From an uncultured Bacilli bacterium (GTDB lineage Bacteria > Bacillota_I > Bacilli_A > RF39 > UBA660): DNA of 47,277 nucleotides. Where the stretch lies: positions 1-47,277 of the forward strand of contig CANQHO010000002.1 of NCBI GenBank assembly GCA_947623815.1. Direction: 5' to 3'. This document shows, piece by piece, positions 13,082 to 22,222 of this stretch. Within the stretch, counting starts at the first letter, position 1; every line of letters begins with the position of its first letter. The notes under the pieces are model-generated. The model was not told where the DNA came from, searched no databases, and saw only the letters and a program-made list of their open reading frames with translations. Made by a program: the position numbers and the translations under genes.

Positions 13082-14044
13082 CTAGATTACCAATAATCGC
13101 TCTAAAATTTTAATCTGTTTATCTATATTAATATTTCTTGTTCGTAATAATATAATCCTTTTTGATTGTAAGCAATAATTATAATGAATACAATTTTTAT
13201 TGCGTTTTAATTTAGATAATTCTATTTCGTGTGGCAACTGATATTCTAATTCTGTACAACTTAATTTATTAATTATATAATTATATAATTTCTCATCTTC
13301 AATCCATATTGGAAATCTATGCCAAACATTATTATCGTTAGATTCAATATATTTAATTTTAGTATATTTTGTGAAAAAGTTTTTATATCTTTCTGAATTC
13401 ATTCTCTGTTCAAATACTATATTATCCGCAATAAGTTTTAAATCATCATAATTTATTTTTTCACATAATGGATACACATATGATAATAAAATATTTTTAT
13501 TCTCTCTACTTTCATTATCACAATAATCCATTGTTTTAAAAATTGACTTATCATTAAAAAATATGCCACCACCTATACCATAACTTAATGGTTTAGTTTT
13601 ACCAAATGATGTAACAATAATATCACTATGTTCTCCTATTTTATAACCGTCACTTCCAATATTCCATGCTTGAGCAACATCTTCAATTATCTTAATACCA
13701 TAATTTTTATATTTTTCTAGATTAATCTTATTTAAAATTCCATATTGATGTACCAATAAAATACAATTAATGCTTTGTTTACTCAATATATTATCGACAT
13801 CTTCATCAGTTAAATATAATCCATTTTTTGAATTCACAATCACTGGAATTAAATCTAATTTTAAAATTGTATTTACAATTGAATAACAAACTTCTGACAA
13901 AACCAAAACTTTATCCCCTTTTATTAATCCTAAATTACTTAATGCCACTTCGATAGCTAAAGTTCCAGAGTACGTTATAATACCATATTTTTTATTAAAT
14001 TCATGTGCAAATTTTTCTCCTAACAATTTATTATTATTTATCAT
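13082..14044 (-). CDS. DegT/DnrJ/EryC1-type PLP aminotransferase-like protein (short, 320 aa)
   Basis: GTLAIEVAL, IIEDVAQAW and SFGKTKPL (PLP-lysine context). About 40-60 aa shorter at the N-terminus than usual family members. Confidence 0.65.
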   Translation of the reverse strand: MINNNKLLGEKFAHEFNKKYGIITYSGTLAIEVALSNLGLIKGDKVLVLSEVCYSIVNTILKLDLIPVIVNSKNGLYLTDEDVDNILSKQSINCILLVHQYGILNKINLEKYKNYGIKIIEDVAQAWNIGSDGYKIGEHSDIIVTSFGKTKPLSYGIGGGIFFNDKSIFKTMDYCDNESRENKNILLSYVYPLCEKINYDDLKLIADNIVFEQRMNSERYKNFFTKYTKIKYIESNDNNVWHRFPIWIEDEKLYNYIINKLSCTELEYQLPHEIELSKLKRNKNCIHYNYCLQSKRIILLRTRNINIDKQIKILERLLVI

Positions 14045-14922
14045 ATACGCTTCTTCACCAAATTTTTTCCCTTATTATAACAATCACTTGCTAAACAAGA
14101 CATTTCATCATGACATAGTTCTTGTTCAATTAAAACTTTCCCATCAATATATCTTCCTATTTTATAATCTGGTTTTACCATATAAATACATGGATAAACA
14201 TTCATATCAGGTGCTATTACAACTTTATGAATTCCGGCAGGACATTTAAAATTACATTTATGATTCGTATCATAGCCAAAACTACCACATTTTTTAATTA
14301 GTAATTGTTCCTTTGTATAAATATGTCTTTCCATATTTAAATTTTCAAAAAATAATTTTTTTTGTTTTTCACTAAGAATATTTGAATTATCTAAATCAAT
14401 TGCATTTCCTGTATTTAAAAAATTTATAAATCTGATTTTTCTTACATCCATATTAACAACATTCTTACAAATTTGTAATACTTTATCATAATTATCTTTT
14501 GTAATGGTACACATTAATTCAACTTTAATACCATTTTCTTTTAATCTCAAAATATTGTCTCTCACCATTTTTTGTGAAACTGACGAAATATCTTCATGTA
14601 TTATAAAATGATATGACATTGCAACCATTTCAATACTACTATTTTTTATATCTTCAATTATAGAATCATCTTTATCTATTATTATTCCATTAGATAAAAG
14701 GCGTTTTTGACCAATTAAATCATAAGTTTTAAAGTAATCTCTATGTAAAAGCACTTCAGTACCATTAATATTAAGTTGATACCGGTCTTTTAGCTTATTG
14801 CACATATCATATAATACAGCTCCATTAATATTTCCTTTATATGATACATAACAATGTTTACATATTGTATCACAATCCGAGCATGACATTATTGTAATAT
14901 TTTCACCAGAAAATTCTTTCAT
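14041..14922 (-). CDS. Radical SAM enzyme with C-terminal auxiliary Cys cluster (SPASM/twitch-like)
   Basis: CDTICKHC (CxxxCxxC) near the N-terminus. C-terminal CNFKCPAG ... VYPCIY. 4-nt overlaps with both neighbours. Confidence 0.8.
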   Translation of the reverse strand: MKEFSGENITIMSCSDCDTICKHCYVSYKGNINGAVLYDMCNKLKDRYQLNINGTEVLLHRDYFKTYDLIGQKRLLSNGIIIDKDDSIIEDIKNSSIEMVAMSYHFIIHEDISSVSQKMVRDNILRLKENGIKVELMCTITKDNYDKVLQICKNVVNMDVRKIRFINFLNTGNAIDLDNSNILSEKQKKLFFENLNMERHIYTKEQLLIKKCGSFGYDTNHKCNFKCPAGIHKVVIAPDMNVYPCIYMVKPDYKIGRYIDGKVLIEQELCHDEMSCLASDCYNKGKNLVKKRI

Positions 14923-15644
14923 TTTGTCCTCCTACAATGATATAAATGCTTATGTTTAAAACCTTCTTTACCATATCCATCATCAATTTTTAATACTTCT
15001 AGATTGTTGTTTTTTATTACATCAAGTAATAATTTTTTATCATAGTAATAATATTTTTCACATTCAATGACGCTATTATTTGTACTGCATATTTTATATT
15101 CTATATTAAATTCAATATAATCTTTGAATCGCTTAGAACTATAAAACACTTCAACTTCATCATTAATTTCATTACAATAGTCCTTAAATAAAAATTCCTT
15201 ATTCTTTTCAATCTTTGTATTAAAACTTTCGGATATATCAAAAATTACTATAGTATTATCATCCATAACTTCATACAATTTTTTAAAAAATTGAGTAAGT
15301 TTTTTCTTATTATTATCAAATTGTAGTGTGCTATATGGAATAATAATTAAATCATATTTTTTTAATTCATTATAATCAAGAAAATTAACGCATATCGTAT
15401 TAATATTTTTTTCTTTATTTTTTAAACGCACTAATCTTTCTTTATCAAAATCAAGTGCAGTAACAACCGAATGTTTTGATAGTGGAATAGCTACTCTCCC
15501 AGTTCCAGCTCCTACCACTAAAATTTCTTTGGCATTATTCTCTTCTATTTGATGTAAATAATAATTAATATCATCATTTTGCCCTTTCAATGTATGTAAA
15601 TTATAAAAATCATACATTAATGCTAACAAATCTTTCTTATTCAT
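14919..15644 (-). CDS. Class I SAM-dependent methyltransferase
   Basis: Motif I ILVVGAGTGRVAIPL followed by an acidic residue (ALDFD). Confidence 0.8.
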   Translation of the reverse strand: MNKKDLLALMYDFYNLHTLKGQNDDINYYLHQIEENNAKEILVVGAGTGRVAIPLSKHSVVTALDFDKERLVRLKNKEKNINTICVNFLDYNELKKYDLIIIPYSTLQFDNNKKKLTQFFKKLYEVMDDNTIVIFDISESFNTKIEKNKEFLFKDYCNEINDEVEVFYSSKRFKDYIEFNIEYKICSTNNSVIECEKYYYYDKKLLLDVIKNNNLEVLKIDDGYGKEGFKHKHLYHCRRTK

Positions 15645-20854: not shown

Positions 20855-21326
20855 CTTCTTTAAGTAATAATTCTTGCTTAACTATGTTAATAATAGTATC
20901 AAGCATCTCATTATCTAAAAATTTGTTACACCTATGATACTGTGTAGGAGATAAAATATTAAGTCCCATTAAAACTGGAGAATAATGGTAATTATCTTCA
21001 ATTAAAATATGCATTTTTTTATCTAATGCTGATGCCCATCCTAGTTCTACATGAACACCACCGGATATTCCTTTAGATATATTATTTCCTGGTATTACTA
21101 CCAAAAAGTCACTGCTTTTTACGCCTTCAAAATCACTTTTTGTGCATTCTTCTGGTCCTTTATGATTAATTCCCCAATTTTCTCTTTTTATAGCCAAATA
21201 ATATTCGCAACCCATACTTTCTAATTTTTCAGTTAATTTATTAAAAAAATCTTTATATTCATCTTTTATTTCATATTTTTTTTCATCACATAGTCCTGTA
21301 AAAGGACAAGATATAAACACTTTCAC
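20847..21326 (-). CDS. Nucleoside 2-deoxyribosyltransferase-fold protein (possible nucleotide N-glycosidase)
   Basis: MKVFISCPFTG N-terminus, and DFLVVIPG ... GGVHVELGWASAL matching the G-x-x-E-hG-hA core of the fold. Confidence 0.5.
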   Translation of the reverse strand: MKVFISCPFTGLCDEKKYEIKDEYKDFFNKLTEKLESMGCEYYLAIKRENWGINHKGPEECTKSDFEGVKSSDFLVVIPGNNISKGISGGVHVELGWASALDKKMHILIEDNYHYSPVLMGLNILSPTQYHRCNKFLDNEMLDTIINIVKQELLLKEGV

Positions 21327-22222
21327 TATTTCACCCTCCTAAAATATTTTTTACATTTTATTATTTTGTTTGTTAAAGAGGTCTCTTTTATACATAAATT
21401 ATTATTTATTCCCAAACCTATTTGTCTTCCATCAGAATTTAGAACTCTATGAAAATCACTCCCAACAGAATATAATAAATTATTATCATTGACAATTTTA
21501 CCTAACCATAACGTATCTACACTTAAGCAATCAGATTGATATATTTCAATACCGTCTATTCCCATTTGAATAAGTTTATTTATAATTCTTAAAACAGTAT
21601 CTTTATCATTTGAAAATTTATATGCCATAGGATGTGCAAAAATAACATATCCACCAGCCAAATGAATAGCTTCAATTACTCTTTTCACATCTAAATCATA
21701 ATCACTACCATAACTGAATCGATTGGCTTTGTAATACATTTTTATTTCATCTATAACTTCTTTAGAATACTTTGCTTGTTCTAAACAACTGATTACTTTT
21801 CTATCAAACCAGCAATATTTATTAATATTTATTTTTTTTAATTCTTCTTCAGGGATTTTTTTTATTTTTTCTTTTAATTCTTTTAATAATTTTAGATGCT
21901 TATCAATTCTTTTTTCAGTCATTTCTTTTACAAGTGATTGAAATAAATAATTATTTTCATCAAAACAATATCCTAAAATATGTAATTTTATTTTTTCATT
22001 ATTATCAATAATAAATGATGAAAATTCTATTCCCTTAACTCCTAGCATGTCATATGGAATATTACATTTTAATTCTTCTAATCCACTTATACTATCATGA
22101 TCTGTAATTGACAACATTCCAACATTGTTTTTATCTGCAATATCTACTAATTGCTTTGGTGAAAAAGTTCCATCAGAATTATTTGAATGAATATGTAAAT
22201 CTATATATTTATCATTTAACAT
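21326..22222 (-). CDS. PHP-domain metal-dependent phosphoesterase
   Basis: DLHIHSNNSDG, SITDHDSISG, later FAHP and GSDFH metal ligands. First gene of the operon. Confidence 0.8.
   Translation of the reverse strand: MLNDKYIDLHIHSNNSDGTFSPKQLVDIADKNNVGMLSITDHDSISGLEELKCNIPYDMLGVKGIEFSSFIIDNNEKIKLHILGYCFDENNYLFQSLVKEMTEKRIDKHLKLLKELKEKIKKIPEEELKKININKYCWFDRKVISCLEQAKYSKEVIDEIKMYYKANRFSYGSDYDLDVKRVIEAIHLAGGYVIFAHPMAYKFSNDKDTVLRIINKLIQMGIDGIEIYQSDCLSVDTLWLGKIVNDNNLLYSVGSDFHRVLNSDGRQIGLGINNNLCIKETSLTNKIIKCKKYFRRVK

Follow-up and report, generated by a model that had tools for sequence, protein, structure and literature searches.

A compact 13-gene cassette of 12.7 kb (positions 10574–23228) lies within the stretch of 47,277 nucleotides that we analyzed from an uncultured Bacilli bacterium (contig CANQHO010000002.1; the whole stretch is called the window). 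In our reading, this cassette is mobile and directs the synthesis of a cytosine hexopyranosyl peptidyl-nucleoside of the blasticidin S/gougerotin type, with a regulator and two self-resistance genes of its own; we estimate the probability of this reading at roughly 60%. The weaker claim, that the cassette is a small-molecule cluster with self-resistance genes, is made with higher confidence. A preliminary description, made from the sequence alone, had noted that the enzyme set parallels the blasticidin, mildiomycin and gougerotin pathways; this parallel is supported here by the evidence on a cytidine monophosphate (CMP) N-glycosidase, a radical S-adenosylmethionine (SAM) enzyme (rSAM), a glycosyltransferase (GT) and two tandem-GNAT proteins. 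The cassette and the hairpin beyond it comprise the following features:

22329–23228, minus strand: LysR-family regulator (HTH_1 and LysR_substrate domains), first gene of the cassette
21326–22222, minus strand: PHP metal-dependent phosphoesterase, similar to RNase RNM and 3',5'-nucleoside-bisphosphate phosphatase (PF02811, 27.6 bits)
20847–21326, minus strand: putative CMP N-glycosidase of the BlsM/MilB/BcmB family, 159 amino acids (aa), assigned by PDB matches and an invariant active site
19826–20854, minus strand: radical SAM/SPASM enzyme, BlsE-like (Pfam Radical_SAM and SPASM; motifs CNANCVFC and GGGEPF)
18690–19823, minus strand: GT, a putative remote relative of cytosylglucuronic acid (CGA) synthase (similarity to TIGR04467)
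17506–18693, minus strand: DegT1, a DegT/DnrJ/EryC1-type sugar aminotransferase (PF01041, 295.7 bits)
16674–17516, minus strand: tandem-GNAT protein of 280 aa with an MprF/L-PGS DUF2156-like fold (AlphaFold model, AF2, and Foldseek)
15647–16609, minus strand: FemX-like tandem-GNAT protein of 320 aa (AF2 and Foldseek)
14919–15644, minus strand: class I SAM-dependent methyltransferase (Methyltransf_25/12/11)
14041–14922, minus strand: second radical SAM enzyme, rSAM2, with the motif CDTICKHC (weak NCBIfam radical SAM/SPASM matches only)
13082–14044, minus strand: DegT2, a short DegT-family pyridoxal phosphate (PLP) enzyme (PF01041, 96 bits, profile positions 26–286 of 360)
11361–13022, minus strand: ABC-F protein of the ribosomal-protection, antibiotic-resistance (ARE) type (NF000355, 450.7 bits against a cut-off of 380)
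10574–11350, minus strand: APH(3')-family O-phosphotransferase (NF033068, 215.9 bits against a cut-off of 205)
10504–10528, minus strand: terminator-like hairpin with T-tract, 46 nt beyond the APH stop codon

The ten biosynthetic genes (window 13082–22222) all lie on the minus strand, and a scan for open reading frames (ORFs) reproduced every coordinate, overlap and gap of the ten-gene operon in the preliminary description exactly. The junctions comprise overlaps of 4, 4, 11, 4, 8 and 1 nt, two gaps of 2 nt and a single gap of 64 nt (16610–16673). The operon does not end at 13082, as had been proposed: the ABC-F gene follows after 59 nt and the APH gene after another 10 nt, and both are co-conserved with the ten. 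Together with the LysR gene, 106 nt upstream of the PHP gene, the unit running from PHP through APH (22222→10574) makes up the cassette. The hairpin at 10504–10528, with a 10-bp stem containing 4 GC pairs followed by TTAATATTT, probably forms the end of the transcription unit. Promoter-like matches were not enriched (153, against 152.7 in shuffled sequence), and no riboswitch or leader RNA was detected by Rfam in the whole window. Pfam and NCBIfam searches agreed with the earlier domain calls for the PHP, Nuc_deoxyrib_tr-fold, radical SAM/SPASM, DegT, methyltransferase, rSAM2 and second DegT proteins. For the GT and the two Fem/GNAT-like proteins there was no significant Pfam match, and their earlier labels were borne out by profile searches and structure prediction, the latter giving aminoacyl-tRNA-type folds for the 280-aa and 320-aa proteins.

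We assessed synteny from a tblastn table of loci and the gene tables of further contigs. Relatives of the GT form about 105 protein clusters, all unnamed, and were located in 29 genome loci. The conserved order is LysR-PHP-Ndt-rSAM-GT-DegT-280aa-320aa-MT-(rSAM2)-DegT2-ABCF-APH (Ndt, the 159-aa protein; MT, the methyltransferase), and it is kept in nearly all of about 35 loci at 40–95% protein identity, and LysR immediately precedes the PHP gene in almost all of them. Recurrence of one arrangement in about 35 independent loci goes far beyond chance. The hosts, sampled from the gut of humans, goats, ruminants and rabbits, are labelled as Bacilli, Tenericutes, Erysipelotrichaceae, Mycoplasmataceae, Bacillota or Clostridia. 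Some clusters of the cassette protein families hold hundreds of member sequences, and the relatives are all annotated as 'hypothetical'. The flanks vary between loci and include SMC with an intact dac gene, D-Ala-D-Ala ligase with CvfB, a tRNA synthetase with Fur and AhpC, ribosomal protein genes, and recombinase with DEAD helicase genes.

The Ndt, rSAM, GT and DegT genes are adjacent, and this four-gene core survives even in a divergent locus of Paenibacillus periandrae PM10 (NZ_JAJNMU010000025.1, positions 5070–17441; locus L032), the only cultured match of the GT, where it stands in a different gene set. That variant cluster encodes an Ndt-fold glycosidase, a TIM-barrel isomerase, an aldo-keto reductase, a class-III aminotransferase, a radical SAM/SPASM enzyme, a GT, a DegT protein followed by an AAA_18 kinase, a GNAT protein, a second DegT protein and an arginase-family protein. 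This cluster could serve as an entry point for experiments and may represent a bagougeramine-like pathway. In the metagenomic protein P0215 (489 aa), an AAA_18-type kinase domain is fused to a homologue of the 280-aa protein (35% identity).

The strongest supporting evidence is the conservation of the ABC-F and APH genes, of which the preliminary description made no use. The operon closes with this pair in almost all loci. The ABC-F protein has two ABC_tran domains and ABC_tran_Xtn, and no membrane domain (Pfam); the APH motifs HGDxxxxN and IDVG are kept without change in 25 sequences. The position of both genes at the 3' end of the operon, with scores above curated cut-offs, fits self-resistance of the producer, and we predict this role for them from sequence, with APH phosphorylating the product. 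ARE ABC-F proteins protect the 50S ribosomal subunit and not the 30S target of aminoglycosides, and from the presence of one in the cassette we predict that the product targets the peptidyl-transferase centre of the 50S subunit. The ABC-F protein Ard1 belongs to the self-resistance of A201A. Blasticidin S is reported to bind the peptidyl-transferase centre (PMC8287960). For nucleoside antibiotics, self-resistance by phosphotransferases is documented, with Ard2 of A201A and CapP of capuramycin as examples (PMC12710036). As in A201A/capuramycin-type self-resistance, an ABC-F protein and an APH-type kinase close the operon here; unlike the kinases of those systems, the one in the cassette is nearest to APH(3') aminoglycoside kinases.

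The 159-aa protein encoded at 20847–21326 scores barely above the Pfam cut-off for Nuc_deoxyrib_tr (29.0 against 28.8 bits). Its sequence relatives in the PDB number six, all of them N-glycosidases of CMP or hydroxymethyl-CMP (hmCMP): BcmB (4jen, 2e-23), MilB (4jem, 4jel, 4ohr and 4ohb, 2e-17 to 2e-16) and BlsM (5vto, 9e-17). MilB binds its substrate through Phe22, Arg23, Glu62, Asp78, Ser97 and Gly99, and Glu103 is catalytic (PMC4081090). The equivalents of Phe22, Glu62, Asp78, Ser97, Gly99 and Glu103 are F9, E49, D65, S88, G90 and E94, all invariant in 27 orthologues. An arginine or lysine at MilB position 23 marks hmCMP-specific enzymes tied to a hydroxymethylase, and the CMP-specific BlsM has methionine there (PMC4081090). 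The corresponding residue, T10, is T, S or A across the 27 orthologues and never R or K, and no gene for a MilA-type hydroxymethylase is found in the cassette. Given the complete MilB active site, the non-basic position 10 and the lack of a MilA-type gene, the protein is best read as a cytosine-releasing N-glycosidase, predicted to hydrolyze CMP. The earlier proposal of a CMP hydrolase of the deoxyribosyltransferase fold thus stands, with all MilB-type residues kept.

The closest solved relative, BcmB from the bacimethrin pathway of Clostridium botulinum, likewise comes from Bacillota. BcmB has lysine at the Arg23 position and prefers hmCMP (PMC4081090), unlike the cassette enzymes with T, S or A, and the cassette contains neither a thymidylate-synthase-like hydroxymethylase nor a ThiD-type kinase.

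For the GT, comparison with PDB sequences returned noise only, with the single sequence and the family profile alike, and no significant Pfam domain was found. Within NCBIfam, the CGA synthase model TIGR04467 was the top family in 20 of the 20 family members scanned (best E-value 3.3e-10). An exhaustive profile search yielded 972 representatives, and 31 of 102 distant relatives matched TIGR04467 at E ≤ 1e-20 (best 2.4e-39), and these matched no other family. With TIGR04467 as the sole curated match in the family and its distant relatives, sequence comparison places the GT family as a remote branch of the only characterized lineage that glycosylates free cytosine, a homologue and not an equivalog. 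The enzyme is predicted to couple the base to a sugar. The GT had no match in phage records; plasmids gave four distant matches only (14.5–14.6% identity), stand-alone hypothetical proteins of Streptomyces in uninformative context.

The radical SAM/SPASM enzyme has BlsE (7vob) as its best PDB relative, at 4e-13 with the single sequence. A profile built from 18 orthologues gave BlsE at 7e-20, followed by SkfB at 1.4e-13 and BtrN and viperin at about 1e-8, so that BlsE leads the next match by about 20 bits. The CX3CX2C motif and six cysteines of the SPASM domain are conserved in the orthologues. We predict that this enzyme makes a 4'-keto sugar, by dehydration or dehydrogenation.

AF2 models of the 280-aa and 320-aa proteins were built on alignments of homologues from protein databases, and that of the 280-aa protein reached a predicted local distance difference test (pLDDT) score of 91.7. 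In Foldseek searches this model matched L-PGS first (4v36, 1e-9), followed by MprF, A-PGS and FemX, with template modelling (TM) scores of about 0.55–0.62. The model of the 320-aa protein matched FemX (1xe4, 6e-11), S. aureus FemX/FemA and Sbb17/Sba18 (2e-9), the last two being aminoacyl-tRNA-dependent peptide synthases solved in complex with streptothrisamine. The top matches of both models span TM scores of 0.52–0.62 and E-values of 1e-9 to 6e-11. By these models, both have a tandem-GNAT architecture, and the proteins closest to them in structure all work with aminoacyl-tRNA, which suggests that they act as aminoacyl-tRNA-dependent transferases. BlsK of blasticidin biosynthesis is a tRNA-dependent aminoacyltransferase (PMC12710036).

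Sequence comparison separates these two proteins from known families. With Sba18/Sbb17 of the streptothricin-type pathways and with FemX/MprF, which together with BlsK provide the comparison and include the first structural matches of the models, they share only 9–14% identity. Neither falls within Pfam FemAB or DUF2156. The 280-aa protein has no Pfam, NCBIfam or PDB sequence match, with single sequence or family profile, and for the 320-aa protein both searches against PDB sequences returned noise only; 17 of 19 of its orthologues show a weak match to PF13480. A profile-profile comparison of the two families was not significant. At 90% identity they comprise about 110 and about 170 clusters, all unnamed metagenomic proteins, and both families are confined to this cassette.

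The remaining enzymes also retain their catalytic motifs. The PHP protein matches NF047791 (123.8 bits) and NF041577 (105.8 bits), both under the cut-off, and its metal motifs (HxH, DHD, H, H and DxH) show no variation among 30 orthologues. DegT1 has Kdo8N transaminase and perosamine synthetases as best PDB matches, and its PLP lysine, K190, is kept in all of 34 sequences. Equally invariant are the GAGTG motif of the methyltransferase (21 sequences), the CX3CX2C motif of rSAM2 (8 sequences) and K151 of DegT2 in SFGxTKP (25 sequences). This invariance across orthologues indicates that the PHP, DegT2, rSAM2, methyltransferase and APH genes are functional. The rSAM2 gene is optional, being present in a minority of loci and moved upstream of the PHP gene in loci L024 and L027.

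Taken together, these assignments allow a pathway to be proposed. In the first step, the BlsM/MilB-type N-glycosidase would split CMP to give free cytosine, as its homology and complete active site suggest. The CGA-synthase-like GT may then link cytosine to an activated hexose or hexuronate, probably UDP-glucuronate (distant homology and synteny), after which the BlsE-like radical SAM/SPASM enzyme could form a 4'-keto intermediate, either by 1,2-diol dehydration of the BlsE/viperin type or by dehydrogenation of the BtrN type. DegT1, a member of the aminotransferase family with a presumed keto-sugar substrate, would transaminate this to the 4'-amine. Judging by their fold, the two tandem-GNAT proteins might each add one amino acid from aminoacyl-tRNA, resulting in a dipeptidyl side chain, and the methyltransferase would N- or O-methylate the product. 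DegT2, the optional rSAM2 and PHP are candidates for tailoring or precursor steps. Finally, the ABC-F protein would shield the ribosome of the producer, APH would inactivate intracellular product by O-phosphorylation and LysR would control the operon; the predicted target, given an ABC-F protein, is the 50S peptidyl-transferase centre, as with blasticidin S and gougerotin. Step one is well supported by sequence, and steps two and three draw on remote homology and gene order.

The closest known clusters are those of blasticidin S, mildiomycin and arginomycin from Streptomyces (BlsM/MilB, BlsD/MilC, BlsE/MilG/ArgF, BlsH, BlsK, BlsL). In common with these clusters, the cassette has an N-glycosidase for CMP that retains the whole MilB active site, a DegT-type aminotransferase, a methyltransferase and folds for tRNA-dependent aminoacyl transfer; its GT is CGA-synthase-like and its radical SAM enzyme BlsE-like. 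There are differences as well: this GT and this radical SAM enzyme are only remote homologues, far under equivalog cut-offs; an arginine 2,3-aminomutase, an ATP-grasp ligase and a MilA-type hydroxymethylase of the blasticidin/mildiomycin type are absent; and two tandem-GNAT transferases stand against the one BlsK of blasticidin. The cassette also has PHP, a second DegT and the optional rSAM2 in addition, relies on ABC-F and APH for resistance, and resides in uncultured gut Bacillota of about 25% GC instead of actinomycetes. Gougerotin (Streptomyces) and the bagougeramines (Bacillus circulans) are dipeptidyl 4-amino-4-deoxy-glucuronamide cytosine nucleosides. Their make-up resembles the enzyme count of the cassette, with one base-release enzyme, a GT, an oxidation/amination pair, two amino-acid transferases and a methyltransferase, although the cassette has no carboxamide-forming amidotransferase. 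The bagougeramines provide a chemical precedent for the class in Bacillota; no gene cluster for them was found in the searchable literature. By analogy, the cluster would work like the early blasticidin/mildiomycin pathway combined with tRNA-dependent acylation of the streptothricin type and an A201A-like resistance pair. It lies outside all curated family sets, as the GT and radical SAM enzyme score under equivalog thresholds and neither transferase family is covered by a Pfam or NCBIfam model.

Several observations weigh against a blasticidin S/gougerotin-type cluster. The window GT itself scores 17.5 bits with TIGR04467, against an equivalog cut-off of 300. The alignment of the radical SAM/SPASM enzyme to BlsE spans only its N-terminal ~130 residues, and the BlsE/MilG model TIGR04466 gives 63 bits against a cut-off of 400, ranking about 10th in NCBIfam, under generic SPASM maturases at ~82 bits; the PADLOC model pVip, which has no curated cut-off, matches the same enzyme at 73.9 bits (3.5e-21). 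In view of the short alignment, the sub-threshold NCBIfam score and the similarity to viperins and maturases, the BlsE-like assignment rests on a modest preference for BlsE together with synteny. The pLDDT of the 320-aa model is 74.1, which is moderate confidence only. PHP, DegT2 and rSAM2 have no assigned pathway step, and the cassette contains no UDP-glucose dehydrogenase, amino-acid ligase, aminomutase or exporter. Membership in the APH(3') family is typical of aminoglycoside resistance, and all hosts of the full cassette are uncultured metagenome-assembled genomes (MAGs).

Four other readings were considered, and we rank all of them low. The one that survives best, though we consider it unlikely, is an aminoglycoside-like or aminosugar pseudo-oligosaccharide made by butirosin-type logic, in which the radical SAM dehydrogenase, the DegT enzymes and the GT build the scaffold and the APH(3') protein is the resistance of the producer. 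The score of APH above its family cut-off, the presence of BtrN among the PDB matches of the radical SAM enzyme and that of 2-deoxy-scyllo-inosose (2-DOI) aminotransferases among the DegT1 matches would all be expected from it. It leaves the invariant CMP N-glycosidase without a role, however, and neither a 2-DOI synthase nor a sugar-phosphate cyclase occurs in the cassette or in about 35 loci. The GT resembles CGA synthase alone, and ARE ABC-F proteins protect the 50S subunit, not the 30S subunit that aminoglycosides target.

Slightly less probable still is a viperin-like function, in which the radical SAM enzyme acts on CTP or CMP and a chain-terminating or toxic modified nucleotide serves anti-phage defence or nucleotide-pool modification, with no secreted antibiotic. 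Viperins are not known to carry a SPASM domain, and the SPASM cysteines are conserved in this enzyme. The pVip match and the viperin structures among its PDB matches speak for this function, and NF038283 (viperin_w_prok), which gives 69 bits, far under its cut-off of 180, speaks against it. In its favour, too, PHP and the NUDIX genes of some loci act on nucleotides, and a mobile element carries the cassette; yet the other nine proteins match no PADLOC defence family except for a generic methyltransferase, and a GT, two aminoacyl-tRNA-type transferases and a ribosome-protection ABC-F protein are foreign to known viperin systems.

We regard as improbable, too, that the operon modifies a nucleotide sugar or envelope polymer, for example by attaching aminoacylated amino sugars to teichoic acid or peptidoglycan. 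The preliminary description had reported no Wzx/Wzy, priming polyprenyl-phosphate transferase, sugar-1-phosphate nucleotidyltransferase or sugar-phosphate cyclase, and we confirmed the absence of these envelope-glycan genes for the window and for all annotated contexts of the related loci. Flippase, polymerase, priming transferase, nucleotidyltransferase and membrane protein genes are neither in the cassette nor conserved beside it in about 35 loci; no annotated flank among these contains any of the first three, and none of the loci, with their diverse flanks, lies in a glycan locus. This counts for more than the usual substrates of Fem and MprF homologues (peptidoglycan precursors or lipids), the similarity of DegT1 to enzymes of surface-sugar pathways and the cell-wall genes in which the window is rich (dac, three VanY, PBP2, GH25), as the ten enzymes are also without Pfam membrane or export domains, and the cassette occurs in constant linkage with ABC-F and APH, moving as a unit among unrelated chromosomal sites. 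Least probable of all is a resistance island of ABC-F and APH where the adjoining metabolic genes would serve to detoxify or salvage a nucleoside antibiotic of external origin rather than produce one: two resistance genes above curated cut-offs, a mobile carrier and GNAT genes in some loci agree with it, but ten biosynthetic-type enzymes are strictly co-conserved (40–95% identity) with intact active sites, and N-glycosidase, GT, radical SAM enzyme and aminotransferase form a constructive set matching the early blasticidin steps.

The putative peptidyl-nucleoside cassette is cargo of an integrative element, and the gene into which this element is inserted contains a second one. The relevant features are:

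8478–24614: element A (integrative, 16,137 bp), with the cassette as cargo; it interrupts the dac gene at a GA core
8442–10130, minus strand: large serine recombinase of element A, 562 aa (Resolvase, Recombinase and Zn_ribbon_recom; CcrB/XisF-like)
23304–24439, minus strand: decayed, frameshifted remnants of a GNAT gene (23304–23478) and a NUDIX gene (24048–24439), found by tblastn against intact genes of locus L006
6352–8203: element B, a 1,852-bp mini-element with a 415-aa serine recombinase (6764–8011) and orf102 (6400–6708)
24615–24967, minus strand: N-terminal dac fragment with SxxK (Peptidase_S11 positions 6–112)
8204–8477, minus strand: middle dac fragment (DacA positions 139–213)
5836–6351, minus strand: C-terminal dac fragment with KTG and PBP5_C (Pfam and reconstruction)

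The gene of a PBP5-type D-Ala-D-Ala carboxypeptidase is split into three pieces by these two independent serine-recombinase elements, such that the SxxK, SxN and KTG motifs each belong to a different piece. Element A carries the cassette, the decayed NUDIX and GNAT genes and one terminal large serine recombinase, whose ORF crosses the right-hand junction. Its junctions share the dinucleotide GA, and joining 24615 to 8477 restores ...VASGN/DAVVALAE with the SxN motif (the slash marks the join). Element B is flanked by the 11-bp direct repeat ATACTAATAAA, with copies at 6352–6362 and 8204–8214, and its removal restores EFWLVNTNK/LVRFNSIVDGLKTGFT. The predicted attB junctions of the two elements are GCTAGTGGGAATGATGCCGTGGTAGC and TTAATACTAATAAATTAGTAAG. 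In-silico removal of both elements resulted in an ORF of 1,143 nt encoding 380 aa, with a single unbroken Peptidase_S11 match (7–238 of 239, 278.9 bits) and PBP5_C, collinear with intact dac genes from metagenomes at 56–82% identity. The exact 26-nt empty site of element A was not found in metagenome contigs, and a degenerate empty-site search turned up nothing but intact dac genes from other species, which lacked the neighbours seen in the window. The 102-aa product of orf102 has no family match. The ends of element B carry the short inverted sequences TTTACAATAA and TTATTGTAAA.

An island bounded by recombinases had been proposed previously; it is indeed a mobile island, but it has one terminal recombinase and not one at either side, the second recombinase belonging to element B. 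Serine recombinases also flank the cassette in loci L010, L023 and L036, and other loci have no recombinase within 10 kb of it. Since recombinases are absent at this distance there, the cassette moves, though not only by a vehicle of the element A type. In their terminal enzyme with Resolvase, Recombinase and Zn-ribbon domains and their insertion inside a coding sequence, the elements resemble SCCmec with its Ccr recombinases, the fdxN element with XisF and elements of the skin/SPbeta type; the likeness extends to a shared core of 2 bp (element A) or 11 bp (element B) and to excision that is exact in silico. They differ from these in the antibiotic-type cluster that element A has as cargo and in the occurrence of two independent elements in one dac gene, and no recombination directionality factor was identified here.

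The GNAT and NUDIX remnants of element A lie upstream of LysR. Intact copies, confirmed by Pfam, accompany the cassette in L006 (6081–6578 and 3453–3848), L024 and L020, and may be accessory resistance or precursor genes. In L006, from a goat-ileum MAG, a 475-aa ORF at 57–1484, TraG/VirD4-like by eye, lies about 5 kb upstream of the cassette and hints at a conjugative-element context there. Outside element A, the window contains AMP-binding and hybrid kinase/response-regulator genes (25991–29551); homologues (67% and 34% identity) adjoin the cassette upstream in L006 (1657–6050), L008 and L025, with no dac gene or recombinase in between. On the 133-kb contig of L034, four cassette genes (LysR, Ndt, radical SAM and ABC-F) are each fragmented (6612–17531), a sign either that the cassette is decaying in some lineages or that the assembly is faulty.

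Elsewhere in the window, cell-wall genes occur at 30182–33704 (plus strand), 38267–40348 (minus strand) and 41593–42669 (minus strand). Three paralogues of VanY-type D-Ala-D-Ala carboxypeptidases are clustered on the plus strand, with one 275-aa ORF of no known family between them, and genes for a PBP2-type transpeptidase and a GH25 muramidase are found nearby. The three VanY genes together with PBP2 and GH25 indicate that the host is a walled bacterium unusually rich in peptidoglycan-trimming genes. Just downstream of the dac locus (844–5214, minus strand) lies the gene of a 1,456-aa protein with an N-terminal prokaryotic N-methylation motif, as in type IV pilins, and a weak fn3 match.

Going by the searchable literature, cytosyl peptidyl-nucleoside antibiotics have so far been linked to genes in actinomycetes only, and no description of such a cluster in Bacillota was found there. 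If correct, our reading of the cassette would extend this class to anaerobic, uncultured gut Bacillota, lineages usually thought poor in secondary metabolism, and would bring in two enzyme families not previously associated with tRNA-dependent amide formation. It would also mean that a mobile, translation-related resistance pair of an ARE ABC-F and an APH(3')-like protein circulates in animal and human gut microbiomes. The compact and clearly bounded 12.7-kb cassette is amenable to synthesis and heterologous expression. A wider proposal, to which we give somewhat less than even odds, is that genome-reduced gut Bacilli of the RF39/'Tenericutes' type widely carry, in humans, ruminants and rabbits, a mobile cluster for a new ribosome-targeting cytosine peptidyl-nucleoside, whose peptide would be made solely by two unrecognized aminoacyl-tRNA-dependent families and whose resistance genes would form a mobile reservoir. 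As compounds of the blasticidin class also hit eukaryotic ribosomes, the product could then act on host and other eukaryotic cells of the gut as well.

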